A DNA stretch of 64,000 nucleotides from NCBI GenBank assembly GCA_034928305.1, contig JAYFOZ010000001.1, positions 173,255-237,254 of the forward strand, written 5' to 3'. The stretch comes from Methanomassiliicoccaceae archaeon (lineage in GTDB: Archaea; Thermoplasmatota; Thermoplasmata; Methanomassiliicoccales; Methanomethylophilaceae). The notes under the pieces were generated by a model, which was not told where the DNA came from, did not search any database, and saw only the letters and a program-made list of their open reading frames with translations. How positions within the stretch are numbered: the first letter of the stretch is position 1; each line of letters begins with the position of its first letter. The position numbers and the translations under genes are program-made. Of this stretch, positions 19,055 through 46,750 are shown piece by piece.

Positions 19055-19071
19055 ATGGATGATATATCCAA
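19055..19071. promoter_or_regulatory. 17-nt palindromic operator copy (ATGGAT-GATAT-ATCCAA) abutting a TATA-like AAATTATATA
   Basis: Lies 42 nt upstream of the NifH-like start at 19113. Same motif as at 24233, 24293, 24341, 32493, 32575 and 45847. Confidence 0.55.
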
Positions 19072-21260: not shown

Positions 21261-22528
21261 GGACCCTGCCCGACGGTTTCAACGGTGCCATCATGGCGGT
21301 AGAGAGCATAACCGACGCCATAGCTTTCCTGCACGGCCCAGGAGGATGCAGGGTAAGGCACATGGTCCATTCGACAGCCGTCTTTCCCCGCGAGGACCCT
21401 GGAGACAAGGATGGGTACGACATACCATATTTCTACAGCTACCCGAGGGTGCCAGCAACATATCTCGACGAATATGATTACATAAACGGTGCGGCGTATA
21501 AGTTATCGGAAGGACTGCATATAGTTTCATCCAAGAAGCCGGCCCTCGTAGTGATCATCGATTCACCGGGCGCGGGGCTCATCGGCGATAATCACGAAAA
21601 GGCCGTGTGGGAGCTCGGACTTGAATCCAAGGTCGTATGCATGGACGAATCCCTCATATCTATGCCGTTCACCATTTGCTACGGCCACACGCTCAGAGCA
21701 GTAGTGGAGAAGCTCGGACCGGAAAGAGGCCGCCGGGAGAAGAATACGGTCAATATAATCGGCCTGACCATCATGGATAAGGACTGGAGGGCCGCCGCGG
21801 ACGAGCTGCGGGGGCTGGTCGAGTCCATGGGCCTGAAAGTAAAGTCCGTTCCCGGTGCTGGAGCTTCCACCTCGGAGCTCCGCGACTCCGTTAATGCGGA
21901 ATACAGCATCGTGGTGTGCCCGGAGGCGTGTGCCGGCCTGTCCGAGCTTTACGAATCATATGGGGTGAAAGTGGTGCGCTCGGATGCGGGCGCCCCCGTA
22001 GGATTCGATGCCACCGAGAGATGGATAACGTCGATAGCGGAGGCTACGGGCAGGGACCCGACGTCGGCGCTGGGGTCCGTCCGCAGGGCGAAGGAGAGAG
22101 TATATGAGAAATTTGTCGGTACGAAGTATAATTCGCTGCGCATAAAAGGAATGTCATTTTCCGCAGCCGGCACGGCATCGGTCATAAGGTCGCTGACAGA
22201 GTGGCTCTATCATTATCTGGCCATGGCGCCGGTCGCGGTATCGGTAGATCCCGGGGCCGATAAAGACGAGGTCGAGGCGCTTAAGGTATTTTTGGATTCG
22301 GCAGGATACCCCGAATCTTTTGGCCGGGAACCGAGAGAAGGTTCGGGCGCAGTCTTCTGCGAAGGCATAACCGCCTACACGATGCTATTGAACGGCGGGT
22401 GCAGGATCGGAGTGCCCATCGGATATTCCTCGATGGGCCTTGACGACGTGATTTCTCGCCCGGTGTACGGGGTACAGGGCGCGATGTACATACTGGATGA
22501 GATCCTGCACGGCGTAAGGGGAAATTGA
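21257..22528 (+). CDS. NifK/BchB-like 'nitrogenase component 1' subunit
   Basis: ATGA overlap with the upstream stop. AVESITDAIAFLHGPGGC and VVIIDSPGAGLIGDN motifs. 423 aa. Confidence 0.7.
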   Translation: MRTLPDGFNGAIMAVESITDAIAFLHGPGGCRVRHMVHSTAVFPREDPGDKDGYDIPYFYSYPRVPATYLDEYDYINGAAYKLSEGLHIVSSKKPALVVIIDSPGAGLIGDNHEKAVWELGLESKVVCMDESLISMPFTICYGHTLRAVVEKLGPERGRREKNTVNIIGLTIMDKDWRAAADELRGLVESMGLKVKSVPGAGASTSELRDSVNAEYSIVVCPEACAGLSELYESYGVKVVRSDAGAPVGFDATERWITSIAEATGRDPTSALGSVRRAKERVYEKFVGTKYNSLRIKGMSFSAAGTASVIRSLTEWLYHYLAMAPVAVSVDPGADKDEVEALKVFLDSAGYPESFGREPREGSGAVFCEGITAYTMLLNGGCRIGVPIGYSSMGLDDVISRPVYGVQGAMYILDEILHGVRGN

Positions 22529-22594: not shown

Positions 22595-23350
22595 TCAGAT
22601 CTTTCTCGTCTTCAGCAGATAGTAGTCCAAAGCGAAGAATGCCAGACTGAACGCGGCCAACACCATCAGCGAAATCCATGGGAAATCCAAATAGCCGGGT
22701 AGCGCCGCGGCCCTTATGCACTCGCTGGCATGGGTCAGCGGAAGGCAATACAGCACTCCCTGGAAAATCGGGGACAGAGAAGAAACCGAAAAGAACGTTC
22801 CGCACAGAAATGTCATCGGAAGTATGATCAGGCTGTTGAAGGTCGCGAGGCTCTGATGAGATTTGGCCAGCAGCGCCGCGGACATGCCGAGGAAAGAGAA
22901 GGCCAGGCAGGACAAGATCACGCACAGCGCAAATAACGGCGAAAGTACGAGTTCCGGCGCCAGAAACAACCCGAGGGCGTAAATCAGGACACAGCTCATC
23001 AATCCCCTGAATATCCCAAGCACAGATTTTCCGAAAATAATGGCGGGAAGGCTCAAAGGGCACATCATCATTTCGTCAAAACTCTTGTAGTAGAGCCTCT
23101 GGACGTTCATTCTTGTGGACGTCGACGAGAATGACGACGAGAGGGAAGAGAGTGCAACGATACCCGGTATTACGAACGCAACGTACGATACTCCGATATC
23201 GGTCGTCCCCGTCCTGAGCCCGTATCCGAACGCGATAAGATACAGCAAGGGGCTCATGACGCTCATAACCAGAATGTTCAGGAAATTGTGCTTGATGAAC
23301 ATGAGGTCTCCCCAGGCAACGTAATACGTCTGCTTAAGGAAGCTGATCAT
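22595..23350 (-). CDS. ABC-2 type transporter permease
   Basis: 251 aa, 6 TM segments, 4-nt overlap with the upstream ATPase. Confidence 0.75.
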   Translation of the reverse strand: MISFLKQTYYVAWGDLMFIKHNFLNILVMSVMSPLLYLIAFGYGLRTGTTDIGVSYVAFVIPGIVALSSLSSSFSSTSTRMNVQRLYYKSFDEMMMCPLSLPAIIFGKSVLGIFRGLMSCVLIYALGLFLAPELVLSPLFALCVILSCLAFSFLGMSAALLAKSHQSLATFNSLIILPMTFLCGTFFSVSSLSPIFQGVLYCLPLTHASECIRAAALPGYLDFPWISLMVLAAFSLAFFALDYYLLKTRKI

Positions 23351-24207
23351 TTCTGTGCCCCCACGCTCTTTCCGGTGAGTTCTACGAATACGTCCTCAAG
23401 GTTGATGTTCCTTATCAGTACATTCTCTTCGCTATCGAGGGATGAGACGAAAGCCTTGGCCTCGTCCCTGCTCCGGAAATACTTATACTGGGTCCTTTTT
23501 TCGGCCATGTACTCGACCGCCGTCGAACCCATGGCATCGCAGAGCTTTTTGGGCTCATCCAATGCTATTACTTTGCCCTGGTCTATGATTCCGACCCTGT
23601 CGCACAGAGCCTCCGCCTCTTCTATGTAGTGAGTGGTCAGGAAGATCGTCGTGCCCTTTCGGTTGAGGGATCTGACTACATCCCATAGGAGGCGCCTTGC
23701 GTTGATGTCGAGGCCGGACGTGGGCTCGTCCAGGAACAGGACCTTCGGTTCATGCAAGACGGCGCAGACTATAGCCACTCTTTTCTTCCAACCTCCGGAA
23801 AGCGAATCAACGGGCATTCCGAGATATTCTTTTAGACCGAAGTAGTCCGAGAGCTCCTTGATTTTTTCGTTTCTCTCTTTCTTCGGCATCATATGGTACA
23901 TTGCGTGGGAGACCATGTTCTCCATAACGGTAAGGTCCTTGTCAAGGGAGATCTGCTGCTGTATGACCCCCATCCGATTCTTTGCCTCTGTCGGGTCCCT
24001 CTTGATATCGAAACCATCGACTGTGATGGTACCAGAATCATATCCGGTCAGTGTGGCGATGCACCTTACCGTCGTCGTCTTTCCGGCGCCGTTGGGCCCC
24101 AGGAATCCGAATAGCTCTCCGTGGCGGATCCTCAGATTCAAATGATCTACAGCCGTTTTCTCCCCGAATTTTTTGACAAGATCGTCAATGATGATGATAT
24201 CATTCAT
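23347..24207 (-). CDS. ABC transporter ATP-binding protein (ABC-2/DrrA-like)
   Basis: Walker A GPNGAGKTT, signature LSGGWKKR, Walker B LFLDEPTSGLD. Confidence 0.9.
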   Translation of the reverse strand: MNDIIIIDDLVKKFGEKTAVDHLNLRIRHGELFGFLGPNGAGKTTTVRCIATLTGYDSGTITVDGFDIKRDPTEAKNRMGVIQQQISLDKDLTVMENMVSHAMYHMMPKKERNEKIKELSDYFGLKEYLGMPVDSLSGGWKKRVAIVCAVLHEPKVLFLDEPTSGLDINARRLLWDVVRSLNRKGTTIFLTTHYIEEAEALCDRVGIIDQGKVIALDEPKKLCDAMGSTAVEYMAEKRTQYKYFRSRDEAKAFVSSLDSEENVLIRNINLEDVFVELTGKSVGAQK

Positions 24208-24340: not shown

Positions 24341-24357
24341 TTGGATGATACATCCAA
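24341..24357. promoter_or_regulatory. operator copy TTGGAT-GATAC-ATCCAA (perfect half-sites)
   Basis: Lies 9 nt upstream of ATG 24366 and downstream of the TATA-like ATTATTAAATA (24311-21). Confidence 0.55.
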
Positions 24358-24365
24358 GTGATCGA

Positions 24366-25694
24366 ATGGATATGAAAATCAAGATAATCACAATAGTCGC
24401 CGCGACGGCCGTCGTGGTCGGGGCGATTGGAGCGTATGCACTTCTCAACGACGCGGACGACGACAGCGTCTATGTCGATGCATCACTGGCGATAATGGGG
24501 AATGCCAATGAAGATTCTAAGATCGACCAGGACGACCTTGACATTATTGAAGAAATAATCAGTGGCGAGACGGACCCCGCCGACCACCCATTGGCCGACG
24601 CGAACAACGACGGAGACGTCGACCAGGAAGACGCGGACCTTCTTCGCGACATGATCGACCATAAATCCGGCATAACGATAAACGTGGTCTGTTCCAATGC
24701 CGACGGGACCCCGTATGTACAGGATATAACATATCCGCTCAGAAGCACGGTTGTCGTTGGGACGAACCTTCTCTCTACATGCATCCAGGTAGGCGCGGCA
24801 GACTATATCGTCGGTTACACAAAGACAAATTACGGTGTCGCCCACGCACCCGTGATAGATAACGCGACGTGCATCGGAGGGTCAATCTTCGATCTGAACA
24901 CTGACACCTCAATAACAAACTTCCAGAATCTAGACGCACAAAAGGGGATTGATGCAGTGATTACGATGCCCTCAGTTTCATATCTCAAGACGTCTGCGGC
25001 GTACATCTCCGGCGCGGGGATACCCATCCTCAGGATTGATTCCTCGGACGGAATGGATTCTGTCGGCGGAGCGCTCACAATCGGATACATCTACGGAAGC
25101 GAGACCGAGAAAACCTCTTACGAATTCGCCGAGCTCAGCTATGCGGTGCTGGAAGAAATCACAGAAAGAGTGAGTGGATTGGAAGAATCGGAGAAGAAGA
25201 CCTTCATGGCAATCACAATGGGATACTATATCAGCCAGACCGACTCCGCGTATACAGGGGTTTGCGAGTACGCAGGCGGAAGCACGGTGACGACGCTGGA
25301 GGGCACTGGTTCGGTCAAGATAAACGACGGCGACGAATATTATCTCAACTGGAGCCCCGACTACATAATCAGCTTCAGGACGCTGGATTATTCGATTGAC
25401 TACACCGATATCTCAAGCAACAGCACGAAGACCCCGCAGGAAACATGGGACCAGTATTCCGGTTATTTCGACATGATGGGAGAGTCGTATGAAAACCTGG
25501 TGTACATCAACACCAGCATGCCTGTGACTTGCAGGATGGCATACATCGCCGAGATATTCTACCCAGACCTCTTTGAAGAGGGGTACGGGGACAGCGTGCA
25601 CCAGCAGTTTGTGGACAATTATATGGGGTATCTCGGTGACTTCGATGTCACCAAGGACATGACCACGATGATAACCTATGCGGATGTGTCATAA
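24366..25694 (+). CDS. membrane-anchored substrate-binding protein of a type-II ABC importer (Fe-siderophore/B12/heme class) with an N-terminal dockerin-like module
   Basis: TM anchor KIKIITIVAATAVVVGAIGAYALL. Two Ca-binding-type repeats: NANEDSKIDQDDLDIIEEII and DANNDGDVDQEDADLLRDMI. The remainder resembles Peripla_BP_2. Start chosen at MDMKIK. Confidence 0.65.
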   Translation: MDMKIKIITIVAATAVVVGAIGAYALLNDADDDSVYVDASLAIMGNANEDSKIDQDDLDIIEEIISGETDPADHPLADANNDGDVDQEDADLLRDMIDHKSGITINVVCSNADGTPYVQDITYPLRSTVVVGTNLLSTCIQVGAADYIVGYTKTNYGVAHAPVIDNATCIGGSIFDLNTDTSITNFQNLDAQKGIDAVITMPSVSYLKTSAAYISGAGIPILRIDSSDGMDSVGGALTIGYIYGSETEKTSYEFAELSYAVLEEITERVSGLEESEKKTFMAITMGYYISQTDSAYTGVCEYAGGSTVTTLEGTGSVKINDGDEYYLNWSPDYIISFRTLDYSIDYTDISSNSTKTPQETWDQYSGYFDMMGESYENLVYINTSMPVTCRMAYIAEIFYPDLFEEGYGDSVHQQFVDNYMGYLGDFDVTKDMTTMITYADVS

Positions 25695-25731
25695 ATGGGA
25701 GTATTCCCCCTCTTTTTTTGAGAGTGATCAC

Positions 25732-26529
25732 ATGGAGATGAAGGCCGTCGATCTGGGTTTCAGGTATTATGATAATGTGATATTGAGCGATGTCAACGTA
25801 GACCTCGAAGGCAACAAAATGGTGTCGATAATAGGTCCCAACGGAGTCGGAAAGACCACGCTCATTCACTGCTTCAGTAAGATACTGAAGCCCACAGACG
25901 GACGGGTGTATGTAAACGGAAAAGATATCGAAGATTACAAACTGAAGGAACTGGCTAAAATAATCGCATACGTCCCGTGCACTTCGCTGGACACATTCCC
26001 CCTGACCGTAACGGACACGGTTCTTTTGGGAAGAAATCCCCACAGTAAATGGGGGTCCCTGAACAGGGACCTGGAGAAGGTGCAGGAGACATTGCGGCTG
26101 CTGGGGATCGAGGATCTTGCCATGAGACCTTTCAACGAGCTTTCGGCAGGGCAACGTCAAAAAGTGGTGCTCGCCAGAGGGCTCGTGCAAGAGTCCCAGA
26201 TATTGCTTCTGGACGAACCCACGGCGAACCTGGACATCAAACACCAAATGGGCGTTACCAGATTGCTGCGTGACTACTCGCACAAGCAGGGCATAATGGT
26301 GATAATGATCAGCCATGACCTCAACATCGCTGCAAAGTATTCTGACGAAGTCATCATGTTGTACGGGGGGAACATATTCGCCAAGGGGTCGCCGAAGGAC
26401 ACAATCAATCCGGAGAACATAGAGGCTGTGTACGGTGTCAGGTCGAAAACCGTCATCAATAACGGTCGGCCGCATGTGATCCTCGAAGATGACGACGACC
26501 CGAAAACAAACATCTGCGCGGGTGCTTGA
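25732..26529 (+). CDS. ABC importer ATPase (FepC/BtuD-like)
   Basis: GPNGVGKTT, LSAGQRQKVVLARGL, LLLDEPTANLD, and the H-loop ISHDL. Confidence 0.9.
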   Translation: MEMKAVDLGFRYYDNVILSDVNVDLEGNKMVSIIGPNGVGKTTLIHCFSKILKPTDGRVYVNGKDIEDYKLKELAKIIAYVPCTSLDTFPLTVTDTVLLGRNPHSKWGSLNRDLEKVQETLRLLGIEDLAMRPFNELSAGQRQKVVLARGLVQESQILLLDEPTANLDIKHQMGVTRLLRDYSHKQGIMVIMISHDLNIAAKYSDEVIMLYGGNIFAKGSPKDTINPENIEAVYGVRSKTVINNGRPHVILEDDDDPKTNICAGA

Positions 26530-27607
26530 ATTGCCTGACGAAAAGGGGCTCGTCGAGGCATACCGTCACAATCTGTTCCTCAAAGTCGTTTTCATAATAT
26601 CATGCTTCGCCGTGCTTATGCTGGTCATAGGTTACTCCCTGGCGGTCGGCCAGGGAATCACCGTGTCAGAGTCGTACGAGATAATGATGAAACATCTTGC
26701 CGGAGAGATATATCCGCTCAGGTCCGAAATGTGGTGGAAGGACTACTTCATCTGGAACAATGTGATGCCTCGCGTGGTCGTCGGAATAATAGGCGGCTGC
26801 GGTCTGGCTGCATGTGGAGCCGTCATGCAGAGCATCATGAGCAATCCTCTGGCCGATCCCTACACCACGGGGATATCTTCAGGTGCCTGCTTCGGTGCGG
26901 TGGCATCCCTGATAGCAGGAGTCTCGTTCGCATCGCTGGGCAGCGGATACACCACCGTGACCAATGCTTTCATAGGCGCATTGGTTCCGACTATGATCGT
27001 CATACTGATAAGCAGGCGCATAAACGCGACCCCCGCAACACTGATTCTGATAGGGGTCGCGATATCTTACTTCTTCAATGCGGCCGTGACTCTCATGATG
27101 GTTACTGCGACCGCCGAGGATCTGCAGGCCGCATATCTCTGGCAGGTCGGAACCCTGACAGGCATGACATGGAGCAGCGTACCGCTGATGCTGGTCATAA
27201 CGGCGGCGGGTTCCGCCGTGGCGATGCTGTTTTCCAAAAACATGAATCTGCTCACGATGGGAGAGAACAGCGCAAAGAGCATGGGTCTGGACGTTGAACA
27301 GTTCAGAATGCTGTGCTTGATTATGGTGGCGGTAATGACGGCTGCCATCGTGAGTTTCACAGGCATACTGGGTTTTGTAGGTCTCATATCCCCTCACATC
27401 ACCAGGCTGGTGATAGGTTCGGACAACAGGGTGGTCATTCCCGCTTCCATGATTGTCGGCGCGCTGATGCTGGTCTCATGCGATCTCATCTCGCGTTTGG
27501 TGTCAAATATTACAGACATCCCCGTTGGCGTGGTCCTGTCCTTGCTGTGCAGCCCGATATTCCTGCTGATGGTGACCGGATTAAAGAGAGGGAGGGGCGT
27601 GTACTGA
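26489..27607 (+). CDS. FecCD/BtuC-family permease, subunit 1
   Basis: 372 aa, about 10 TM segments. Motifs RVVVGIIGGCGLAACGAVMQ and NPLADPYTTGISSGA. Confidence 0.85.
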   Translation: MTTTRKQTSARVLELPDEKGLVEAYRHNLFLKVVFIISCFAVLMLVIGYSLAVGQGITVSESYEIMMKHLAGEIYPLRSEMWWKDYFIWNNVMPRVVVGIIGGCGLAACGAVMQSIMSNPLADPYTTGISSGACFGAVASLIAGVSFASLGSGYTTVTNAFIGALVPTMIVILISRRINATPATLILIGVAISYFFNAAVTLMMVTATAEDLQAAYLWQVGTLTGMTWSSVPLMLVITAAGSAVAMLFSKNMNLLTMGENSAKSMGLDVEQFRMLCLIMVAVMTAAIVSFTGILGFVGLISPHITRLVIGSDNRVVIPASMIVGALMLVSCDLISRLVSNITDIPVGVVLSLLCSPIFLLMVTGLKRGRGVY

Positions 27608-28674
27608 TGGTTCATGAGCAGATCTATGGATTCGTGGAGAAGTATTGCCACGAGAATCACAAGAAAATCGTTTTTACAATAACCTGTCTGATACTAGCCA
27701 TATTTGTCTTTTTCCTGACAATCTCCATCGGAAAATACGAGCTGTCTTTCGGCGAGTCGTATAGGATATTTGTCGACAATCTTTTCGGAAACGGTCAGGC
27801 TACAACAGAGAACATGATCATCTGGGAATACCGTGTCCCCCGAGCCCTCATGGGCATATTCGTCGGGGCATCGCTGGCAGTGGGCGGCGCGGTCATGCAG
27901 AACCTGATGATGAACCCGCTTGCGGAACCGTATACCATGGGCATTTCGTCCGGTGCCTTCCTCGGTGCCGTGCTGTCGATAACATGCGGTATATCCATCA
28001 TCCCGTTCCTCGGCGGAGACGACGCCACGGTATTGAACGCATTCATCCTTTCGCTCGCGCCGGTATTTCTGATCGTAGCAATATCCAAATTCAGAAAGAC
28101 CACGCCTACGACCATGATACTGTGCGGGGTGGCCATAATGTACGCATTCAGTTCGGTATCGACGATGCTGATGGTCTTGGCGGACCCTGAGCATCTCTCG
28201 GACGCATATTCGTGGCGCGTCGGAGTCCTCGGTAAGGCCTCGTGGGACAGCCTGATGCTGGTAACTCCCTCGATGACGATCCTCATTGCGATATTGTTAC
28301 TCTTCGCGGGAAAGATCAATACGATGTCCATAGGAGACAAGGGAGCAATCTCGCTGGGCACAGACCCATACCGGACCAGGCTCGTCTGCCTGGTCCTGGT
28401 CGCGTTGCTTACGGCATTCGCTGTCAGCTTCACCGGCACGATCGGATTCGTCGGCCTCGTGGCCCCACATATAGTCAGGACGTTCATTGGATCGAACAAC
28501 ACGTATCTTCTGCCGGCATGTGCGGGATTCGGAGGCATATTCCTCCTTGTGATGGACTCAATAGCCAAAGTGATAAGCGAGACCGGGCTACCCGTAGGTG
28601 TCATATCCGCGATGGTCGGGGGCCCCCTCTTCATATACATACTGGTACAGAGGAAGCGCAGGATATGGTACTGA
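27607..28674 (+). CDS. FecCD/BtuC-family permease, subunit 2
   Basis: TGATG overlap start (MVHEQIYG..). Motifs RALMGIFVGASLAVGGAVMQ and NPLAEPYTMGISSGA. The ORF-track start 27313 is rejected. Confidence 0.85.
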   Translation: MVHEQIYGFVEKYCHENHKKIVFTITCLILAIFVFFLTISIGKYELSFGESYRIFVDNLFGNGQATTENMIIWEYRVPRALMGIFVGASLAVGGAVMQNLMMNPLAEPYTMGISSGAFLGAVLSITCGISIIPFLGGDDATVLNAFILSLAPVFLIVAISKFRKTTPTTMILCGVAIMYAFSSVSTMLMVLADPEHLSDAYSWRVGVLGKASWDSLMLVTPSMTILIAILLLFAGKINTMSIGDKGAISLGTDPYRTRLVCLVLVALLTAFAVSFTGTIGFVGLVAPHIVRTFIGSNNTYLLPACAGFGGIFLLVMDSIAKVISETGLPVGVISAMVGGPLFIYILVQRKRRIWY

Positions 28675-28740: not shown

Positions 28741-31700
28741 TCAGCGGTCGTTGACCTCTTCGATACGCTCTTCCAGGCCCAGGAATATTTCCTTCATTTT
28801 CTCGAGTGTTTTCGGGTCGGCGTCCCACATACCCCTGTCGCAGGCCTCCATGAGGCGGTTCATCATGTCCATCATGGCGTGAGGATTTTCGTCCTTCATC
28901 CATTCGCGCGTATCGTCGTCGAACAGATACTTCTCGGCAAGCTTCTCGTACATCCAGTCATCTACTGTTTCGGAAGTGGCGTCCCATCCGAACATGTATT
29001 CAGTAAGGTTGGCTACCTCTGCAACCCCCCTGTAACCGTGCCGTTTCAACCCCTCTATGAATTTCGGATTTAGCACTTTGCTCCTGAAAACGAACTGAAG
29101 CTCTTCTCTGGTGCTTCTCAACCTAACCTTGTCGGGATTCGAACCGTCGCCGATCAAAGATATCGCGTCCTTTTTGCCGTATGCTCTCACAAAAGAGTTG
29201 AGCCCTCCGAGATACCCGTACACATCATCCATGTCCAGCACGTCGATCTCCCTGTCCGGCATATTCTTCACGGTCACGCCGACCTTGCCGAACCTCTTGA
29301 CGAACTGGTCCCTCATGCTCTCTCCGGTCATGCCGCGCCCGTAAGCATAGCTCCCCCAGGTGATGTAGATGTCAGCAAGGTCCTGCACGGTCTTCCAATC
29401 GCCAGTTTCCACGGCGTGGTTAACGCCAGGGCCATACCCTCCCGGCGGGCAGCCGAAAATGCGCACAAGGCCCTCCTTTTTGACCTGTTCCGCCGGCAGT
29501 CCCTTCTCTATTCCCTCTACGATATCTCTGCGCAGGTTCGCCGCTAGGTAGTTTTCTTCTTCGGACTCGTCCAGGCCGGCCGCCATTTTTACTGCGTCGT
29601 CTATCAGGTCGATAAGGTTAGGGAAAGTATCCCTGAACAATCCCGTGATGCGGACGGTCACGTCTATGCGTGGTCTCCCCAGCTCAGACAGGGGAACGGG
29701 CTCCAGCCCGACGACCTGCCCGCCAACATTGGACCACACGGGCCTTATGCCCATCAGCCATAGTATATAAGCGACGTCGTCGCCGTTGGTCTTCATGGTA
29801 TCGGTCGCCCATATGATGAAACCGACCTCGCGGGGATAGTGCCCCGTTTCGTCAATATAGCGTTCGACCATCTGGTCGGCCATCTTTTTACCGATCTCCC
29901 AAGAGGAAGGCGGAGGGACGATGTCCGGATCGATGCCGTAATAATTCCTGCCCATCGGAAGTATATGGGCGTTCCCCCTGGTTGGGGCTCCAGAAGGGCC
30001 CGGGAGGACGTAACCTCCGTTACACCCATGGATAAGATTGTCCATTTCGTCAGTCATCCTCATGATGTTCCTTGCCAGGGAATCGCAGATATAGGCTATC
30101 GAAGACCCGAAGCCAGGTGACATGCCTCCGGCCGCCTCTTCCGCAAGTCTCATGCAGCTGTCCTTTTCATAATCAGCGCATCTCATTGCGGTCAGCAGGT
30201 CAAGCAGGTCTTTTTCCAGAGAATCGATAACAACGGAGTTCAGCTCGCCCTCGCGGACCTCGGATGGATTGTCGAGAAGGACATCCATATTGTATCCCCG
30301 TACCTCTGCAAAAGAATCTCTGAGCGAGGGGACGTCTCCGTTTTTCAATCTCATGATGGAATATATCATCTCGTCGAAACGGTCTCCTTCCGGGGCCCTC
30401 CCCAGTATATGGAGCCCGTCCCGGATCAACGCATCTCTGATATCCGTAAGATATGCGTGCAGATCGTCGAGGCGGCCTTCGAATTCCTCCGCAGAAATGT
30501 TTTCGGAAATATCCAGGTCCCCAAACATTTTGGCTTCGCGGACGCCGTTCAAAACACGCTCTACAAGCGCCATTCTCTTTCCGTCGCTGGAATTCCTCGC
30601 TTTGAAGTATTCCTGCAGAGCGTTATCAATCGCGGACAACTCGTCGTACGAGCCCGCCCGAGCCATCGCAGGGCACATGTGCCCTATAAGCACGGCCTCA
30701 GAACGCCTCTTGCACTGAATTCCTTCTCCAGGATCGTCGATGATGTATGGATAGATGTGCGGGATCCCGTCGAGCACGATGTCCGGAAAGCATTTCGAAG
30801 ACAATCCGACACTCTTGCCAGGGAGCCACTCCAGAGTTCCGTGCGTCCCCATATGAAAGACGATGTCCGTTCCAAAGTCGAACTTGAGCCATCTGTAAAA
30901 CATCAGATATTGATGGGGCATCGGCACCACGGGATCATGATAAACAGACTCCATCTGGTTGGCCCAAGATCTCAGGGGCTGATAACCGATGAATATGTTG
31001 CCGTTCAGCAGGCCGGGGATAACGAATTTGCCGTCTTCGACGCATATAGTTCCGGGAGGCTTTCCCCAATTTTCTTCCATCAGCCGTCTGTTGAACTCGG
31101 ACAGTTCCGAGTAGTACCGCCTATATTCCCTCAGGTCGGCCATGTCTGCAGCCTTTTCCCTCACTCTTTCGGGGGAAGACCATTCAAGGTCGTTCGTGAT
31201 ATTGTCCAAAATCTCATCGATAAGGGCCCTTCCGTTCAGGGGCACGTGATTCACGGTATAGCCCTGCCTGTCGAATCTTATGAGCATGTCGTTCACACTT
31301 TCGATGGTGTCGAGGCCCGCAGCGTTCCCTATGCGCCCCGATTCCGGACGGGATTGATACATCAGAATTGCAACCTTACGCTCGGAGGCTGGTTTCATGG
31401 ACAGTTTGGCCCAGCATTTTACTGCGTTGGAAAGATGCTCTATCCTGTCCTCTACCGGAGAATACCTCTTCGTTCCGCCCAGGCATCCCTCGTTGCTACC
31501 GATCGGCACGGTGATGATCTGACCGTCGACCTCCGGCCAGACCACGCTCATCTTCAGTTCGCCGTTGCTCAGTCCGGAAGCGCTCTCTTCGTAATCTGAA
31601 AAGTGGCCGCCCACCGTCATGGCCTGTATGACCGGGACGTCCGTCAGGTAATGATAGAAGTTCTGTTCATCGGGAGTGTAGATGCCCGTGCAGTCTCTGG

Positions 31701-32481
31701 AGTTATTGAGCTGTGAGAACGGGGTTGCCATTATAATTGCGTTCACCCTGCACTTTTTTCCGTCCATAAGATATTTTTCAACCACCGAAAGAGTGCCCCC
31801 GCTCCCCTCGGAGCTGCTGACCCTCGTGCTGAAGAAAACCGGGATGACGTTGACCTCTATTGATTCAAGCTTTCTGATGAGCATATCGATATGCTCCTGA
31901 TTGTTGTATATCCACAGATTAGATGTGTACAGTATCCCGACGGTAGGACGGCCGGGGACCAGATGTTCCAGATAATCCTTCAGGTCCACGTCTCTGGAAT
32001 AATCCGGATGATATATGCCGTCCTCTCTGTTTTTAATCGGTTCCGGGACGGCCCCATCGCCGGTAAGCTTGTTGTTCAGCCATTGCAGGATGCCCTTGTC
32101 GTTCTCTCTGCCCCTGTTTCCGATATATTCCCCCAACAGTTTGAAATCTTCATCGGAGCCCTTGAACAAATCGCGATACATGAGGCGCACTTCTACGTTC
32201 CCGGCATAGGACATGACATAGCCGGGGCATTCTCTGAGCACATTTTCAAATTGGGCGAATCTCTTCATCCGTGACGGTTCGGCCATGGATCTAATTATTG
32301 TCAGATCTGCAACTTTGGACCTGCGTACAAGTTCCTGGTACAACAGCGGATCATCGTCCACATCTTCCCCGTTAACGCAGAACAGTTCTATGTCCCATTT
32401 TCTCTCCAGGGATATTTCCCTTGCGGGCTCTTCCATATTGTGGGCGTCCGAACTCTGAATTGATATATAAACGACTTTCAT
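28741..32481 (-). CDS. cobN: CobN/ChlH/BchH-family large chelatase subunit
   Basis: 1246 aa. Length and architecture fit the class I chelatase large subunit (FHMGTHGTLEWLPGK, GNAHILPMGRNYY and similar). Divergent from the chlI/chlD-like genes. Confidence 0.85.
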   Translation of the reverse strand: MKVVYISIQSSDAHNMEEPAREISLERKWDIELFCVNGEDVDDDPLLYQELVRRSKVADLTIIRSMAEPSRMKRFAQFENVLRECPGYVMSYAGNVEVRLMYRDLFKGSDEDFKLLGEYIGNRGRENDKGILQWLNNKLTGDGAVPEPIKNREDGIYHPDYSRDVDLKDYLEHLVPGRPTVGILYTSNLWIYNNQEHIDMLIRKLESIEVNVIPVFFSTRVSSSEGSGGTLSVVEKYLMDGKKCRVNAIIMATPFSQLNNSRDCTGIYTPDEQNFYHYLTDVPVIQAMTVGGHFSDYEESASGLSNGELKMSVVWPEVDGQIITVPIGSNEGCLGGTKRYSPVEDRIEHLSNAVKCWAKLSMKPASERKVAILMYQSRPESGRIGNAAGLDTIESVNDMLIRFDRQGYTVNHVPLNGRALIDEILDNITNDLEWSSPERVREKAADMADLREYRRYYSELSEFNRRLMEENWGKPPGTICVEDGKFVIPGLLNGNIFIGYQPLRSWANQMESVYHDPVVPMPHQYLMFYRWLKFDFGTDIVFHMGTHGTLEWLPGKSVGLSSKCFPDIVLDGIPHIYPYIIDDPGEGIQCKRRSEAVLIGHMCPAMARAGSYDELSAIDNALQEYFKARNSSDGKRMALVERVLNGVREAKMFGDLDISENISAEEFEGRLDDLHAYLTDIRDALIRDGLHILGRAPEGDRFDEMIYSIMRLKNGDVPSLRDSFAEVRGYNMDVLLDNPSEVREGELNSVVIDSLEKDLLDLLTAMRCADYEKDSCMRLAEEAAGGMSPGFGSSIAYICDSLARNIMRMTDEMDNLIHGCNGGYVLPGPSGAPTRGNAHILPMGRNYYGIDPDIVPPPSSWEIGKKMADQMVERYIDETGHYPREVGFIIWATDTMKTNGDDVAYILWLMGIRPVWSNVGGQVVGLEPVPLSELGRPRIDVTVRITGLFRDTFPNLIDLIDDAVKMAAGLDESEEENYLAANLRRDIVEGIEKGLPAEQVKKEGLVRIFGCPPGGYGPGVNHAVETGDWKTVQDLADIYITWGSYAYGRGMTGESMRDQFVKRFGKVGVTVKNMPDREIDVLDMDDVYGYLGGLNSFVRAYGKKDAISLIGDGSNPDKVRLRSTREELQFVFRSKVLNPKFIEGLKRHGYRGVAEVANLTEYMFGWDATSETVDDWMYEKLAEKYLFDDDTREWMKDENPHAMMDMMNRLMEACDRGMWDADPKTLEKMKEIFLGLEERIEEVNDR

Positions 32482-32492
32482 ATCTTCAAATA

Positions 32493-32509
32493 TTGGATGT
32501 ATAAGCCAA
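32493..32509. promoter_or_regulatory. operator copy TTGGAT-GTATA-AGCCAA (cobN side of the divergent promoter)
   Basis: Lies 12 nt upstream of the cobN start 32481, between it and the TATA-like TTTATTTATAT (minus strand). Confidence 0.5.
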
Positions 32510-32574
32510 TATAAATAAATTTAATGTTCCAGTTAGAATCATTCATTATCGGATAAAGGTTTATTATAGGTAAA

Positions 32575-32591
32575 TTGGATATATGAGCCAA
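32575..32591. promoter_or_regulatory. operator copy TTGGAT-ATATG-AGCCAA (chlI side)
   Basis: Lies 17 nt upstream of ATG 32608, just after the TATA-like TTTATTATA. Confidence 0.5.
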
Positions 32592-32607
32592 CCAGTTGGG
32601 AATTATC

Positions 32608-33633
32608 ATGGACAGATTACTTTTCCCGTTCGTCTCGATCGTAGGTCAAAAAGAAATGAAAAAAGCACTGCTGCTCAACGTTGTGGACCCGAGCATCGGA
32701 GGCGTACTCATAAAGGGTGAAAAGGGAACGGCGAAATCGACGGCCGTCAGATCGCTTTCGCAGATCCTTCCCTGGCGTATGTCGGCGGAGGGATGCGCGT
32801 TCAACTGCGACCCTTCGTTGCCCGGCAGGCTGTGCCCCTACTGCAAAGAGAAGATCCTTTCAGGAAAGGACCTGAGGTCCGTAAATGTCAGAATGAGGGT
32901 TGTGGAACTCCCTCTGAGCGCCACGGAGGATCGAGTCTCGGGCACTCTGGATATCGAACACATCCTCAAGACGGGGGAAAGGAAGTTCGATCCCGGAGTA
33001 CTTGCACAGGCCAACGGGAATGTGCTCTATATAGACGAGGTGAACCTTCTGGACGACCACATCGTAGATCTATTGCTCGATTCAGCGGCAATGGGAGTCA
33101 ATTATGTGGAAAGAGAAGGGGTCTCCTTCTCTCATCCTTCTAGATTTATTCTGGTTGGTACGATGAATCCGGAGGAGGGGGACCTCAGACCGCAGCTTTT
33201 GGACAGGTTCGGGTTGTCCGTCGAAGTAAAAGGGGACAGAGACACCGACGAACGCATGGAGGTCGTCCGAAGAAGGCTTGAGTTCGACACAAACCCGGAA
33301 AAATATACTGAAAAATACGGGGCAGAGTCGGAACAGCTGACGTCCAGGCTGTCAAAGGCCCGGGAAATCCTTCCGGACGTTTCGGTGGACGACGATGTTC
33401 TGAGAGCGATAGTGAACATGACGATAAACCTGGGCATCGATGGCCACAGGGCAGATATCACAATGGTTAAAGCGAGCAAGGCCAACGCTGCCATGGACGG
33501 GAGGGTCCGCGTAACCAAAGAGGACGTCAGGGAGGCGGCCCCTCTGGCACTTTCTCATCGTATGCGGCGGCGCCCGTTCGAGGAAGAAGCATTCGACAAA
33601 GAGGAACTCGACAGATGTATGCAGACTATATGA
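32608..33633 (+). CDS. chlI: ChlI/BchI-like AAA+ chelatase subunit
   Basis: FPFVSIVGQKEMKKALLLNVVDPSIGGVLIKGEKGTAKST, Walker B LYIDEVNLLDDHIVD, GTMNPEEGDLRPQLLDRFG. Confidence 0.9.
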   Translation: MDRLLFPFVSIVGQKEMKKALLLNVVDPSIGGVLIKGEKGTAKSTAVRSLSQILPWRMSAEGCAFNCDPSLPGRLCPYCKEKILSGKDLRSVNVRMRVVELPLSATEDRVSGTLDIEHILKTGERKFDPGVLAQANGNVLYIDEVNLLDDHIVDLLLDSAAMGVNYVEREGVSFSHPSRFILVGTMNPEEGDLRPQLLDRFGLSVEVKGDRDTDERMEVVRRRLEFDTNPEKYTEKYGAESEQLTSRLSKAREILPDVSVDDDVLRAIVNMTINLGIDGHRADITMVKASKANAAMDGRVRVTKEDVREAAPLALSHRMRRRPFEEEAFDKEELDRCMQTI

Positions 33634-35510
33634 GCGGGCTTCCTTTCACTGCCATATATGGCATGGACGACCCGAAAAAAGCAGTGCTTTGCTCCATGGT
33701 CAACCCCCGCATACGTACGGTTCTGATAATGGGATGTTCGGGATCTGCAAAGACTGCTCTTTCCAGGGCGACGGGCGCCCTGATGGGCAGGGAGGTCGTG
33801 AACGTGCCACTCAATGTTACAGAGGAGCAGCTGTTTGGCGGAATGGACATCGAGGCCACCCTCAGAGAGGGAAGGCCCGTGGTACAGAATGGGATCATGC
33901 ACCGGGCAGACGGGAAGATACTGTACGTAGATGACATAAATCTCCTAGATCAGAAGATCGCCGCGGCACTGACCGACTGCATACTGAACGGAAAGGTGGT
34001 TCTGGAAAGAGAAGGAATATCCGCCGAGTACGAATGCAAAATCACCCTGATCGCAACGATGAACCCGCTGGGTCCCGAAATGAGCTCGCATCTGACCGAC
34101 CGTTTCGATCTGTGCGCATACTCTGTCTTTCCCGAGGATGAGAGCGGAAGAAAAGAGGTGCTCCGCAGGAATATAGAATATCAAAAAGGAGCCGCATCGT
34201 TCTCCGAAATGTACGGGGATGAGGAATCTTTGCTCAGGTCTAAGGTCGAGAGGGCCCAATCTATTCTTCCCATCGTAAAGATGTCCGACGACCTTTTGGG
34301 CGTAATCGTCGAGCTCGCCGCAAAGGTATCCGCAGAAGGTTTCCGCGGCGACCTGGCAATAATCAACGCCTCCATGGCTCTGGCAGCCCTCAACGGACGG
34401 GACGAGGTAACCAGAAAGGATGTGGAAGAGGTGGCGGCACTGTGCCTGGTTCACCGCCGCAATACTTCTCCCGAACCTCCGGAGCGGCGGGAGCAGGAGC
34501 AGGAGCAGGAGGGACAAGATGAAGAAAGGGAGCCTCGCAGAGACGAAGGGCAGCGGCAGGAAAGCAATGGAGAGGGACAAGATCACGGGGCCGAAGAACC
34601 GCCCGATCGGGGTGAGAGCTCCGACTCCGAGGAACCGGGCCCCGAACGGACGGCAGAGGATATCCTTTTCGAAGTCGGAGAGCAGTTCAGAGTTATCGAC
34701 TATATTCACGGGACCGGTCGCAAGGTCCGAAAGACATCTAGCAGAAAGGGCCGCAGAGAGGCCGCAGAAAGTTCGGACACGACAGGAAGATACATATGTT
34801 CCAGGTGTCCGGAAGGGAAAGCCAAGGACATTGCGTTAGATGCAACCATTCGTGCTGCGGCACCGTATCAGAGGTCCAGAGATCATGGAGATCTTGCGAT
34901 ATCGATAAATGGCCAGGATATCAGAGAGAAGGTTCGTGAAAGGCAATCCGGATGCACGATATTATTCCTTGTCGACGCCAGCGGTTCTCTGGGCGTCAGA
35001 AAGAGAATGTCAGCGGTAAAGGGCGCAGTCCTCTCGATGCTTCAGGACAGCTATGTAAAAAGGGACAAGGTGGGGCTGATGGCGTTCAGACGTGATTCTG
35101 CCGAGTTGATACTGCCGCCTACCAGGTCCGCGGAGTACGGGTATAGGAAACTGGCGGAGATGCCCACCGGGGGGAAGACCCCGCTCGCCGAGGCCCTGGT
35201 TTCGGCCGGAAAGGTCATGACATCGTATTCCAGGTCGCACCCAGGGGAGATGTGTTACATCGTGGTCATCACAGACGGCCGCGCCAACGTTCCGATCGAT
35301 CGGGGCGCCGACGCCAACGAAGAGGTGATCAAACTGGCATCGAAGATGTCCATACCCCAGGTGGACTGGATCGTAATCGATGCCGGCTCCGGATATGTCC
35401 GTTTTGATAACGCCGAAAAGCTGGCAATGGAACTCGAGGGCACATACTTCAGGCTGGACGATCTGAACTCGGACAGGCTGGCAGAGAATATCAGAGCGGT
35501 CATCAGATAA
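33615..35510 (+). CDS. chlD: ChlD/BchD-like chelatase subunit (degenerate AAA+ domain, acidic/Pro linker, vWA domain)
   Basis: Degenerate P-loop GCSGSAKT. Linker PEPPERREQEQEQEGQDEEREP...SDSEEPGPE. vWA MIDAS motif LFLVDASGSLG. Confidence 0.85.
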   Translation: MYADYMSGLPFTAIYGMDDPKKAVLCSMVNPRIRTVLIMGCSGSAKTALSRATGALMGREVVNVPLNVTEEQLFGGMDIEATLREGRPVVQNGIMHRADGKILYVDDINLLDQKIAAALTDCILNGKVVLEREGISAEYECKITLIATMNPLGPEMSSHLTDRFDLCAYSVFPEDESGRKEVLRRNIEYQKGAASFSEMYGDEESLLRSKVERAQSILPIVKMSDDLLGVIVELAAKVSAEGFRGDLAIINASMALAALNGRDEVTRKDVEEVAALCLVHRRNTSPEPPERREQEQEQEGQDEEREPRRDEGQRQESNGEGQDHGAEEPPDRGESSDSEEPGPERTAEDILFEVGEQFRVIDYIHGTGRKVRKTSSRKGRREAAESSDTTGRYICSRCPEGKAKDIALDATIRAAAPYQRSRDHGDLAISINGQDIREKVRERQSGCTILFLVDASGSLGVRKRMSAVKGAVLSMLQDSYVKRDKVGLMAFRRDSAELILPPTRSAEYGYRKLAEMPTGGKTPLAEALVSAGKVMTSYSRSHPGEMCYIVVITDGRANVPIDRGADANEEVIKLASKMSIPQVDWIVIDAGSGYVRFDNAEKLAMELEGTYFRLDDLNSDRLAENIRAVIR

Positions 35511-36030
35511 TGATATGATAATTTCTACTCCGTGTGTGAAAAAAGACTTGCTGGAATCGCGGCTTACTGGTTCACATCACGGATTGTTGTTTTGTGCGGT
35601 AAATCTGTCTGAAGATCATCTTAGTGAGCCGTCGTCCATTATGTAACGCCAGACTTTCATGTCATTCCCCTCTGTGCTTACAACGGGGCCCCGAATACCG
35701 CGTGGCGGCCGAGAAGAAATTTCCCATGCCGATCGAGTTATGGAAACAGAGGAACAAGGAAGAAGCCTTGAAACCCGAGGATGCGCCCATCGTTCCAGAG
35801 GATCAGAGGCCGGACCCTTTATGAAGTTGTCATCGGCTCGAATCTGCGTCGTATATCGAGGTCAACGGAATATCTTCGAGGGCACATATTCTGAGATCTC
35901 TTTAATTTCACAGATGCAGGGCATTTTTGGCGATTAAATCATACTAAGTCGATAGGAAAACAATAGATTAATATACCGTGCAACCAATCTATACCCAATC
36001 GATTGAAATAACGGTAAACGGAGACAAGAT

Positions 36031-37227: not shown

Positions 37228-37231
37228 CGAG

Positions 37232-37675: not shown

Positions 37676-37739
37676 AAGAGCCAGACAGCAAAATTTAGCT
37701 TTAAAATATCGAATGTTTCAGATCGGAGAAGGACAAAAA

Positions 37740-38672: not shown

Positions 38673-38723
38673 AAAAGTAATTACTTGGATCAAACTAAAA
38701 AAATGAAAATGAGAGGTATAAAA

Positions 38724-45846: not shown

Positions 45847-45863
45847 TTGGATGATTCATCCAA
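45847..45863. promoter_or_regulatory. operator copy TTGGAT-GATTC-ATCCAA (perfect half-sites) abutting the TATA-like GGTATAAAT
   Basis: About 60 nt upstream of the DUF4430-like gene. Differs from the 24341 copy at 2 of 17 positions, both within the 5-nt spacer (GATTC versus GATAC). Confidence 0.55.
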
Positions 45864-45922
45864 AGGTATAAATCGGCAAGCGTCTTATATTCCGTCAGTC
45901 AAAATCGAGATAGGTGTTCAAC

Positions 45923-46699
45923 ATGCAAAACAAAACGATGGCCCTGATAGCCGCGGCGATTATAGTCGTGGCCGTTGCCGGCGCGGGAGTCTATTATTAC
46001 TACGGAGGAGACGAAACTCAGGAAGGAACCAAGATCCTCGTTCAAGACAACGAAGGAGTGTATTTCTGGATCGAGGGAGACGGTGACAATGAGTTGACAG
46101 CTCTTACGGATGCATGTGAAAAATATGACATCGAAGTTGTATTCGCCAACGGCTGGATAGACAGTCTTTTTTCACTCGGAATGGTGGGACCGGATGCAGA
46201 TAACAACTGGATCTATTGGAGCCAATACAGCTACACAGACGGAGCATGGGTCCTGAACGATTACAACATGGACCAGTACAATACTTCCGATGTAGAGGCC
46301 ATGGCCGTAGTATATTCTGATGGATCCGAAGTGCCCGCTGTCGACCCGGACGATGCAAAGGTCTGGAACCACAGCACGGATGGAACGGTATTCACCATCG
46401 AGTCCAAGTCTGGAGTGAGCTTTAAGATAAACGGCACCGGCGAAACGGCCATCGAGGCGTTGATCGATGCAACCGACAGATACGCAGTGCCCTTCGTCCC
46501 ATCGGGTAACCCGGCGAACGGGGTCGAGTCACTGTTCGGAATAACATACGCATACGAGGGCGGCCAATGGTCGTGGTGGATACAGAAGGTGCCGACCGGC
46601 GACGGGACCGGGTGGGAAACCAGCACGCTGATGATGGACGAGATGCCAACCTCCGAAACGCACAGCATGAAGCTGGTATACGGCACCGAGACCATGTAA
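45923..46699 (+). CDS. membrane-anchored extracytoplasmic protein with two DUF4430-like (transcobalamin beta-domain-like) repeats
   Basis: N-terminal TM ALIAAAIIVVAVAGAGV. Two repeats end in W-x-Y/W...W...hydrophobic-VY (NNWIYWSQYSYTDGAWV..AMAVVY; GQWSWWIQK..GWE..MKLVY). The family call is an inference. Confidence 0.5.
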   Translation: MQNKTMALIAAAIIVVAVAGAGVYYYYGGDETQEGTKILVQDNEGVYFWIEGDGDNELTALTDACEKYDIEVVFANGWIDSLFSLGMVGPDADNNWIYWSQYSYTDGAWVLNDYNMDQYNTSDVEAMAVVYSDGSEVPAVDPDDAKVWNHSTDGTVFTIESKSGVSFKINGTGETAIEALIDATDRYAVPFVPSGNPANGVESLFGITYAYEGGQWSWWIQKVPTGDGTGWETSTLMMDEMPTSETHSMKLVYGTETM

Positions 46700-46750
46700 T
46701 CCATTAATAAACGGAATAAACCCTTTACTGAATTTTAACAAGGTGTACAA

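Follow-up and report, generated by a model that had tools for sequence, protein, structure and literature searches.

What does a three-subunit, ATP-dependent (class I) chelatase do in a strictly anaerobic methanogen, and with which metal, on which cargo and in which direction does it work? The role of CobN, ChlI and ChlD homologues in anaerobic archaea has been asked about since at least 2011, and the question was restated in 2025 (PMC3087415, PMC12583661); an earlier, sequence-only reading of the stretch treated here had called these archaeal homologues largely unassigned, in agreement with the literature (PMC12583661, PMC3087415, PMC8305020). The stretch, called the window below, comprises 64,000 nucleotides of contig JAYFOZ010000001.1 from a Methanomassiliicoccales archaeon, and carries a cobN-like gene facing away from a chlI-chlD pair. 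We found that CobN and ChlI/ChlD, a FecCD-type ABC importer, an ABC-2 type exporter and a DPOR-like, nitrogenase-like reductase make up a module that recurs in four methanogen orders, and that a palindromic operator stands before its transcription units in Methanomassiliicoccales and before cobalt-uptake and corrinoid genes in relatives. Because the locus ties the chelatase to an importer, an exporter, a reductase and an operator, the old question becomes a set of specific ones about cargo, metal, direction and regulator. The answer that we put first, tentatively and at less than even confidence, is an importer-coupled cobaltochelatase within a cobalt/corrinoid regulon, which would serve in salvage or in late insertion of cobalt, in parallel with the known CbiX route.

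The comparison was made by scanning one genome per species, which gave 76 loci with CobN relatives, and further work was carried out on about 80 loci (numbered L0xx), onto which the window proteins were mapped while all open reading frames of the loci were clustered into families. The nearest CobN relatives also come from Methanomassiliicoccales, the nearest genomic locus being that of Methanomassiliicoccaceae UBA72, with a CobN 91% identical, and topoisomerase VI and class I LysRS serve as archaeal markers within the window. A scan for bacterial sigma-70 promoters was set aside since the organism is archaeal.

The large subunit is matched by Pfam PF02514 (CobN-Mg_chel) with 1199 bits (E=0) over residues 118-1225, and by NCBIfam TIGR02257 (cobalto_cobN) with 916 bits, above the cut-off of 822, while it stays below the cut-offs of the narrower CobN models. 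The BchH/ChlH equivalog models are not reached (738 bits against 829 for TIGR02025, and 671 against 1300 and 554 against 1166 for the others). Ranked by sequence score, the solved structures place M. tuberculosis CobN first (7c6o, 674 bits), followed by CobN 9uk9 (593), ChlH (463) and HmuS (355). The HxG(T/A)HG motif, which is superfamily-wide (PMC12583661), is present as HMGTHG at residues 543-548, and a CobN-type motif, REIDVLDMDD..GG, starts at residue 1077. Compared with the C-terminal active site of solved bacterial CobNs (REHD...DSDD...GG), DxDD..GG is retained and the His of REHD is replaced by Ile, giving REID within residues 1077-1086 (window 29224-29253). No transmembrane segments are predicted, and the protein is cytoplasmic. 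Hundreds of close homologues exist, which public sources call CobN, and many genomes of the survey carry two to three paralogues side by side. In a rough tree, which was built from the C-terminal 240 residues with four reference fragments only and carries no strong claim, these paralogues group by gene context, with the window clade being the type divergent from chlI-chlD, and they form a large archaeal radiation near whose base both bacterial reference CobNs branch.

The starts of the two partner genes were taken from public gene calls on the identical contig: the listed chlI frame begins at a TTG (32596), the likelier start being the ATG given in the table, and the likely ATG of chlD overlaps the chlI stop. 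ChlI scores 431 bits on TIGR02030 (BchI-ChlI), which is strong though under the equivalog cut-off of 467, and ChlD reaches 429 bits on TIGR02031 (BchD-ChlD). ChlI carries a Walker A of GEKGTAKS (residues 37-44) and a Walker B of LYIDEVN. The AAA+ domain of ChlD has the P-loop GCSGSAKT and a Walker B with DD, and is followed by a 68-residue linker (residues 280-347; 37% Asp+Glu, 12% Pro) and by a VWA domain whose MIDAS motif, DASGS, lies at residues 449-453, with DxSGS kept in all 35 ChlD homologues. The I/D/H architecture, the acidic, Pro-rich linker and the MIDAS motif had all been recognised in the sequence-only reading, and the family matches and motifs bear them out. Its opposition of an intact ChlI P-loop to a degenerate one in ChlD did not hold, given that both share the form GxxGxAK[ST]; what separates the subunits is Walker B, with DE in 23 of 27 ChlI homologues and DD in 19 of the 26 ChlD homologues with a recognisable motif. 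Just past Walker A, ChlI also has a Cys4 insert (C-x3-C-x8-C-x2-C; residues 63-79, window 32794-32844), found in 23 of 27 ChlI homologues of the loci, which could be a Zn or Fe-S site.

As judged by these models and motifs, cobN, chlI and chlD are predicted to encode a full class I three-subunit chelatase. That a complete enzyme of this class in an archaeon is in itself noteworthy, as had been thought, is not sustained: as a member of its protein family the CobN-ChlI-ChlD enzyme is ordinary, archaeal three-subunit chelatases are already known as such, haloarchaea among them, and the pairing of CobN with ChlI/ChlD is itself an earlier proposal (Rodionov 2003, as far as its citation in PMC9227772 conveys it).

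Automatic annotation implies that the enzyme is the ordinary cobaltochelatase of a de novo, aerobic-type (cobalt-late) B12 pathway, and the score above the TIGR02257 equivalog cut-off, the name CobN in public sources and the presence of a CobB-type amidase (in relatives L021 and L024 only) and of a COG0523 GTPase (in L036 and L038 only) all agree with this. We nevertheless hold it to be very improbable, because neither CobG/CobZ, CobF, CobS/T nor other cobalt-late genes were seen in the 64-kb window or the roughly 80 loci, because the host is a strict anaerobe reported with anaerobic-pathway cbi genes (PMC7617358), and because several CobN paralogues occur per genome, whose consistent neighbours are transporters and a nitrogenase-like reductase. 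The sequence-only reading had reserved this ordinary role for the case of clear CobN orthology together with an aerobic cob pathway; the first half is borne out insofar as the protein is more CobN-like than ChlH- or HmuS-like, while the pathway is the part that does not appear in the window or the loci.

It is in the company of the enzyme where the locus stands out. The families recurring beside CobN-like genes in the 76 loci are, by number of loci, ABC ATPases (45), FecCD permeases (43), ChlD (35), the ABC-2 permease (31), binding proteins of the window type (25), ChlI (25), the NifH-NifD-like fusion (19), the NifK-like subunit (14), an isochorismatase-like hydrolase (10) and CbiZ (9), and the taxa include Methanosarcinaceae (L028), Methanoregula (L050), Methanospirillum (L055) and Methanoculleus (L058). 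The Methanosarcinaceae locus has a single-strand run of chlD, the binding-protein gene, fecCD, the ATPase gene, nifHD, nifK, cbiK (a CbiK-like class II chelatase homologue) and cobN, and Bathyarchaeia as well as a contig labelled Latescibacterota have the binding protein, FecCD, ATPase, CobN, CbiZ and ABC-2 without the reductase. In the window, the top matches of the importer permeases are BtuC-like, under the cut-off. The 442-residue protein encoded ahead of them has an N-terminal transmembrane anchor and no Pfam match above cut-off, and profile-to-profile comparison places it with the Peripla_BP_2 group (hhalign 99.5%, E=2e-22); we therefore take it as a divergent binding protein of that type, which makes the importer complete. 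The physical and probably regulatory tie of the chelatase to a nitrogenase-like reductase and an importer, proposed from the window alone, is supported, and the association of the genes is conserved across four methanogen orders.

The coupling to import goes as far as gene fusion. In two independent assemblies (L080 6657-11864 and L081 6219-11426; protein P0025), a single open reading frame joins a FecCD permease to a complete CobN, giving 1735 residues, of which the permease part is 51% identical to the second permease of the window and the CobN part 66% identical to the window protein over its whole length; the operon reads ATPase, binding protein, FecCD, FecCD::CobN. These fusions are known from gene calls, not from proteins, and they argue that CobN acts on, or takes something from, the cargo of the importer. 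The fused protein also bears a C-terminal extension of about 130 residues without assigned function, and in one of the two assemblies (L080 18372-19793) the ABC-2 exporter ATPase carries a fused isochorismatase-like domain, with stand-alone versions of the domain adjoining CobN-like genes in the 10 loci counted above.

An importer and an exporter both tightly linked to CobN, together with the permease-CobN fusion, also suit metal harvesting, in which a metal-tetrapyrrole or another metal chelate would be imported and reduced by the reductase, CobN/ChlID would strip Fe, Co or Ni from it with ATP, and the ABC-2 exporter would return the toxic, metal-free ligand to the outside. The family does include a proven de-chelatase, HmuS/BtuS, of which a structure paper for HmuS appeared in 2025 (PMC12583661); HmuS requires a reductant, a part that a nitrogenase-like enzyme could play, and the multiplication of CobN paralogues and binding proteins side by side is what one expects for diverse cargos. 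The exporter is better accounted for in this way than by cobalt insertion, and the isochorismatase-type hydrolase joined to its ATPase is a further point in favour. HmuS, however, needs neither ATP nor AAA+ partners, whereas here cobN is accompanied by chlI and chlD in a conserved manner; the window CobN has neither the membrane anchors nor the Met-rich insertion (1246 against 1463 residues), Asp and Gly stand where HmuS has His1209 and Glu1212 (motif from PMC12583661), and its scores lie with CobN, at nearly twice the bits. The cbiMN and a,c-diamide synthase genes under the same operator, described below, also fit the building of a cofactor over stripping. All in all, we consider harvesting unlikely, and it comes first in our order of the rivals, followed by a new cobalt tetrapyrrole pathway, nickel and plain cobalt-late B12.

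The reductase gives the module its second distinctive part. In 19 loci of the four methanogen orders, a NifH-like Fe protein and a NifD/BchN-like subunit are conserved as one fusion protein. In its NifH part, Cys95 and Cys130 are the equivalents of NifH Cys97 and Cys132, in its D-like part Cys305, Cys330 and Cys398 stand at the positions of NifD Cys62, Cys88 and Cys154, and these cysteines are kept in 19 of 19 fusion sequences, with an Asp at the position of the FeMo-cofactor ligand Cys275. The K-like partner has its best, though weak, matches with DPOR BchB and only two conserved cysteines, Cys31 and Cys382, one of them N-terminal. This 3+1 arrangement is the DPOR/COR/CfbD pattern, and predicts a simple inter-subunit [4Fe-4S] cluster. 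Enzymes of the DPOR, COR and CfbD kinds reduce metallated tetrapyrroles, and we take the resemblance to DPOR and COR as a working analogy rather than as family membership. Identity with CfbCD was tried and excluded by the scores below cut-off (318 bits against 402 for the NifH part on the CfbC model, also below the NifH cut-off; 28 against 268 on the CfbD model TIGR03282), by the extra K-like subunit, by the fusion and by the separate CfbCD-type cluster reported in the order, namely the NflD/NflH/MurF-like cluster of Methanomassiliicoccales (PMC4153887). Starting from the reductase, one paralogue in ISO4-G1 adjoins an importer and chlI-chlD. The literature on CobN with nitrogenase-like genes and ABC transporters in archaea yielded general reviews and a single passing mention of 'fused nifH/nifE', and a 2026 review lists several nitrogenase-like clades without an assigned function (PMC13474568).

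A class I chelatase, an amidase and a DPOR-like reductase side by side repeat the enzyme types of CfbA/CfbB/CfbCD and of BchHID/BchLNB, and this invites the reading that the module would synthesise an unrecognised reduced metallo-tetrapyrrole, or would form an O2-independent cobalt-late branch of corrin synthesis. The CobB/CfbB-like amidase (488 bits on the CfbB model, cut-off 560), a fused reductase separate from the CfbCD cluster that these genomes are reported to carry at another place (PMC4153887), and the many nitrogenase-like clades still without assignment (PMC13474568) speak for such a route. Methylases, ligases and other tailoring enzymes are, however, not consistently present, the a,c-diamide synthase occurs in few loci only, and the consistent partners are transporters, which argues for the handling of external compounds; to our knowledge, no novel cobalt tetrapyrrole has been reported from these organisms. 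We regard this biosynthetic role as quite unlikely. A broader conjecture takes in the importer as well, and supposes an importer-coupled cobalt tetrapyrrole pathway in methanogens, built on the logic of the chlorophyll and F430 enzymes, that would make or remodel a reduced cobalt macrocycle or serve as an O2-independent cobalt-late corrinoid route, with an archaeal cobalt- or corrinoid-sensing transcription factor in the place of bacterial B12 riboswitches; it too is unlikely in our estimation.

What binds these genes together in Methanomassiliicoccales is the operator, a palindrome TTGGAT-N5-ATCCAA with seven sites in four intergenic regions of the window, whose duplex can be written as TTGGATGTATAATCCAA. 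Where 1.4 matches to the pattern TTGGATnTATAnnCCA are expected, the window has 9, a count that none of 100 shuffles attains. The core TGGAT-N5-ATCCA occurs at the seven positions listed in the table, every one of them intergenic and six with the centre 17-68 bp upstream of a start codon; the middle site of the triple array lies 65 bp from the start of the binding-protein gene and 94 bp from that of the exporter. The four regions precede the nitrogenase-like genes, separate the exporter from the importer, separate cobN from chlI and precede a second FecCD-type importer operon. Divergent promoters with a shared operator had been proposed from the window, and the 126-bp spacer between cobN and chlI does contain two copies of the palindrome.

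Table. Features of the module and its operators in the 64,000-nucleotide window
Feature	Position	Strand	Details
Operator TGGATGATATATCCA	19056..19070	.	50 bp upstream of the nifH-nifD-like fusion gene
NifH-like Fe protein fused to NifD/BchN-like subunit	19113..21260	+	715 aa; Fer4_NifH and Oxidored_nitro domains
NifK/BchB-like partner subunit	21257..22528	+	423 aa; Oxidored_nitro domain
ABC-2 type exporter	22595..24207	-	ABC2_membrane and ABC_tran domains; DrrA/DrrB-like
Exporter permease	22595-23350	-	
Exporter ATPase	23347-24207	-	
Three exact operators between exporter and importer operons	24234-24248, 24294-24308, 24342-24356	.	
FecCD/BtuCD-type ABC importer	24366..28674	+	FecCD and ABC_tran domains
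Importer membrane-anchored binding protein	24366-25694	+	
Importer ATPase	25732-26529	+	
Importer permeases	26531-27607, 27607-28674	+	
cobN-like large subunit (substrate and metal binding) of class I chelatase	28741..32481	-	1246 aa; Pfam, NCBIfam, motifs
Operator half-palindrome pair TGGATGTATAAGCCA	32494..32508	.	Centre 20 bp upstream of cobN start
Operator TGGATATATGAGCCA	32576..32590	.	Centre 25 bp upstream of chlI ATG
chlI-like AAA+ motor subunit	32608..33633	+	341 aa; TIGR02030; AAA_lid_2, AAA_5 and Mg_chelatase domains
chlD-like bridging subunit (AAA+-like, linker, VWA/MIDAS)	33630..35510	+	626 aa; TIGR02031, VWA_2, AAA_lid_2
Operator before second importer operon	45848-45862	.	
Second operator-controlled importer operon	45848..51817	+	Anchored hypothetical protein, Peripla_BP_2 binding protein, beta-propeller-FecCD fusion, ATPase

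The same arrangement is found in relatives. In orthologous intergenic regions the motif stands at 24-31 bp from cobN and, in L002, L006, L009, L012, L013 and L076, at 16-45 bp from chlI, and equivalent sites stand 33-43 bp beyond the mapped 5' end of the reductase fusion gene in L003, L005, L019 and L037; the triple array between exporter and importer has the same three sites in L005 and similar arrays in L009, L012, L013 and L019. Over the approximately 80 loci there are 44 exact intergenic matches against 0.09 expected in shuffled intergenic DNA (with a maximum of 1 in 200 shuffles), and 117 against 2.9 when up to one mismatch is allowed. These statistics used a simple caller of open reading frames that over-calls coding sequence, and the intergenic counts are therefore conservative. 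The extended consensus is T-TGGAT-NWWWN-ATCCA-A, and site centres are most frequent 10-40 bp ahead of a start codon. The operator is present in ISO4-G1 too and is essentially confined to Methanomassiliicoccales among the loci, given that the Methanomicrobiales and Methanosarcinales versions of the cluster are without it. Three Bathyarchaeia loci (L068 5819, L070 4793, L071 3354) have TGGAT-A-ATCCA, in which a single base separates the two half-sites of the operator, about 45-50 bp ahead of their ChlI/D gene. The position of the operator overlaps the place where the archaeal TATA box and transcription start of short-leader transcripts would be expected, and it would fit a repressor. A 'CBL-box' was reportedly defined in Rodionov 2003; no paper quoting its consensus was found, so we leave it undecided whether the operator was described earlier, while the module, the permease-CobN fusion and the operator appear undescribed in the literature that we searched.

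Which further genes follow this operator was established by counting gene families with a site near their start and checking their identities against curated models. Apart from the genes for CobN, ChlI, binding proteins, ABC ATPases and the reductase, those with an operator ahead of them are cbiM in L021 (TIGR00123, 294 bits, cut-off 184), which has cbiN (PF02553) and a CobB-like gene after it, the cobyrinic/hydrogenobyrinic acid a,c-diamide synthase gene in L024 (TIGR00379, 497 bits, cut-off 261), cbiZ in L033, and MtaC-like corrinoid protein genes in 4 of 4 cases in the loci. Corrinoid-related neighbours of CobN-like genes further include CbiZ (9 loci), CbiK-like proteins (2), tetrapyrrole methylases and the COG0523 CobW-type GTPase (2). 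The theme of the regulon points to cobalt and corrinoids, and since the same operator precedes cobalt-uptake and corrinoid genes in relatives, we take the regulon to be probably cobalt- or corrinoid-responsive. The sequence-only reading had maintained that metal and substrate specificity cannot be read from sequence; this stands for the protein alone, and gives way where the operator-sharing cbiM-cbiN, a,c-diamide synthase, cbiZ and mtaC genes point to cobalt and corrinoids. The mtaC-like sites (L036 6186, L038 5655 and L064 16122, with mtaB- or mtaA-like neighbours) lie about 85-100 bp upstream, not 17-50 bp, and this greater spacing may reflect another regulatory mode or long leaders. In two of these loci (L036 3656-4333 and L038 3289-4023), the short COG0523 (CobW/HypB/UreG-type) GTPase, with a GCICC motif, is encoded near mtaA/mtaC and chlI-chlD-cobN.

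These regulon members also bear on a possible nickel function. Methanogens require much F430, CobN-like proteins of methanogens were suggested as Ni chelatases in 2011 (PMC3087415), and in M. marburgensis a CobN paralogue is produced, as is a NikR homologue, only when Ni is limiting (PMC12350162), so that the module might serve nickel economy through an ATP-driven, high-affinity insertion of Ni into an F430 precursor under nickel shortage. The regulon, however, contains a transporter with the score of a CbiM and, after it, CbiN, which makes the pair one of the cobalt type; cbiZ and mtaC belong to corrinoid metabolism, and CfbA is the characterised Ni chelatase; the short-spacer palindrome is, moreover, unlike the widely spaced sites of NikR. 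A nickel function is for us highly unlikely.

We thus return to the importer-coupled cobaltochelatase. This reading builds on what the sequences show of the architecture and motifs, on the conserved module, on the statistics of the operator, on the genes of the regulon and on the fusions, and from them we infer the metal, the substrate, the direction of the reaction and the repression. In Methanomassiliicoccales, each transcription unit of the module begins some tens of bases downstream of the palindrome, and a putative dimeric regulator would bind the operator over the TATA/start region, probably repressing transcription. The importer would hand a cobalt-free, a,c-diamidated corrinoid or tetrapyrrole to the chelatase, in which CobN would bind the macrocycle and the metal, ChlI would be the ATPase motor, and ChlD, with its P-loop kept, its Walker-B glutamate missing and its acidic linker and MIDAS, would bridge the two; most likely, the enzyme would insert Co2+ into the macrocycle at the expense of ATP. 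As for the reductase, it would contribute low-potential electrons, with which either the ring would be reduced or Co(II) would be taken to Co(I).

Several observations weigh against cobalt insertion in this form. The His of bacterial REHD is missing in 94 of 94 archaeal CobN-like open reading frames, and each of the cobalt links comes from few loci: cbiMN from one, operator-linked cbiZ from one and the operator-linked a,c-diamide synthase from one. The distant mtaC sites could mean a regulon broader than cobalt, and neither a candidate regulator nor its effector was found, no DNA-binding family recurring across the roughly 80 loci. Simple insertion does not explain the tight association with the ABC-2 exporter, and we know of no natural source of importable cobalt-free corrinoids. 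A NifHD+NifK locus (L079) is without a chelatase nearby, and from such mixed neighbourhoods the link between reductase and chelatase is frequent, not obligatory. Methanomassiliicoccales are, furthermore, reported with the anaerobic, cobalt-early corrin genes cbiJ, cbiT and cbiC (PMC7617358), so that a late chelatase is not obviously needed, and a CobN paralogue of Methanothermobacter is induced by nickel limitation, not by cobalt limitation (PMC12350162).

If the module does handle corrinoids, it bears on the cofactor supply of the methylotrophic methanogens of gut and rumen, which depend heavily on corrinoid enzymes, on the regulation of B12-related genes in archaea without riboswitches, and on what at least one clade of nitrogenase homologues without an assigned role does.

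Around these genes, further observations concern the window and its relatives. In the second importer, a PQQ_2-like beta-propeller domain is fused to the N-terminus of the FecCD permease (958 residues, 48133-51009), and a membrane-anchored protein of 258 residues without a family match (45923-46699) precedes the other genes of that operon. Downstream of chlD, at 36031-40590, lie genes for NifS, NifU-N, a cysteine synthase-like protein, an O-acetylhomoserine sulfhydrylase-like protein and an Rrf2 regulator; as possible parts of the module these were treated as incidental, because their adjacency (NifS, NifU and CysK included) is limited to the window and its closest relative, L005. Two open reading frames, at 18264-19028 (254 residues) and 35659-35937 (92 residues), were likewise dropped, having no family matches and no conservation. 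A Schlafen group 3-like protein with a helicase domain (634 residues, 11986-13890) sits among genes that are otherwise biosynthetic. Finally, contigs with the archaeal cluster turn up in bins labelled Firmicutes, Bacteroidaceae, Ruminococcus, Dialister, Prevotella and Gammaproteobacteria (L003, L004, L008, L025, L040, L056; protein P0001), with CobN 65-90% identical and gene order and operator preserved, and these bacterial labels are probably due to mis-binning.

Set beside the known systems, the enzyme is closest to the bacterial CobNs, namely CobNST of Pseudomonas denitrificans and Rhodobacter and the actinobacterial CobN with ChlI/ChlD (7C6O), with which it shares the full-length CobN fold family, the best model and structure-sequence scores, the LD-x-DD...GG and HxGTHG motifs, AAA+ and VWA partners of the ChlI/ChlD type and, in relatives, an operator in common with cobalt genes. 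It departs from them in the anaerobic host with no cobalt-late pathway in view, in the exchange of the REHD His for Ile, and in its setting, which includes a nitrogenase-like reductase as well as an ABC importer and an ABC-2 exporter. A class I chelatase of three subunits, accompanied by a nitrogenase-like reductase of three components, recalls BchH/I/D with the DPOR proteins BchL/N/B, and the reductases are alike in the 3+1 ligand set for [4Fe-4S], the missing FeMo-cofactor ligand and the weakly BchB-like K subunit. In the window, however, the Fe protein and the D/N-like subunit form one fused polypeptide, further bch genes are missing, the organism is a methanogen, and the large subunit falls below the BchH cut-offs and lacks the ChlH-type C-terminal motif, by which membership in the Mg-chelatases (BchH/ChlH) was ruled out. 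The F430 pathway (CfbA, CfbB, CfbCD, CfbE) operates in the same organisms and follows the same logic of chelation, a,c-diamidation and nitrogenase-like reduction, whereas the window has a class I chelatase in the place of the small CfbA, a fused reductase with an extra K-like subunit and a co-regulated transporter of the cobalt type. With HmuS/BtuS of Bacteroidota the window CobN shares the CobN/ChlH superfamily, genes for uptake of external tetrapyrroles, gut organisms and the matter of a reductant; HmuS is, in contrast, a periplasmic protein with the motif LSLDHxxEFMGG, and the differences in anchors, insertion, motif and adjacent AAA+ partners ruled out membership in this de-chelatase type. 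Finally, the haloarchaeal CobN with a fused ChlID (HVO_B0051/HVO_B0050) is likewise an archaeal class I chelatase encoded beside a cobalt-early pathway, for which salvage has only been speculated (PMC8305020), and from it the window differs in having ChlI and ChlD as separate genes, in the link to a reductase, an importer and an exporter, and in its defined operator.

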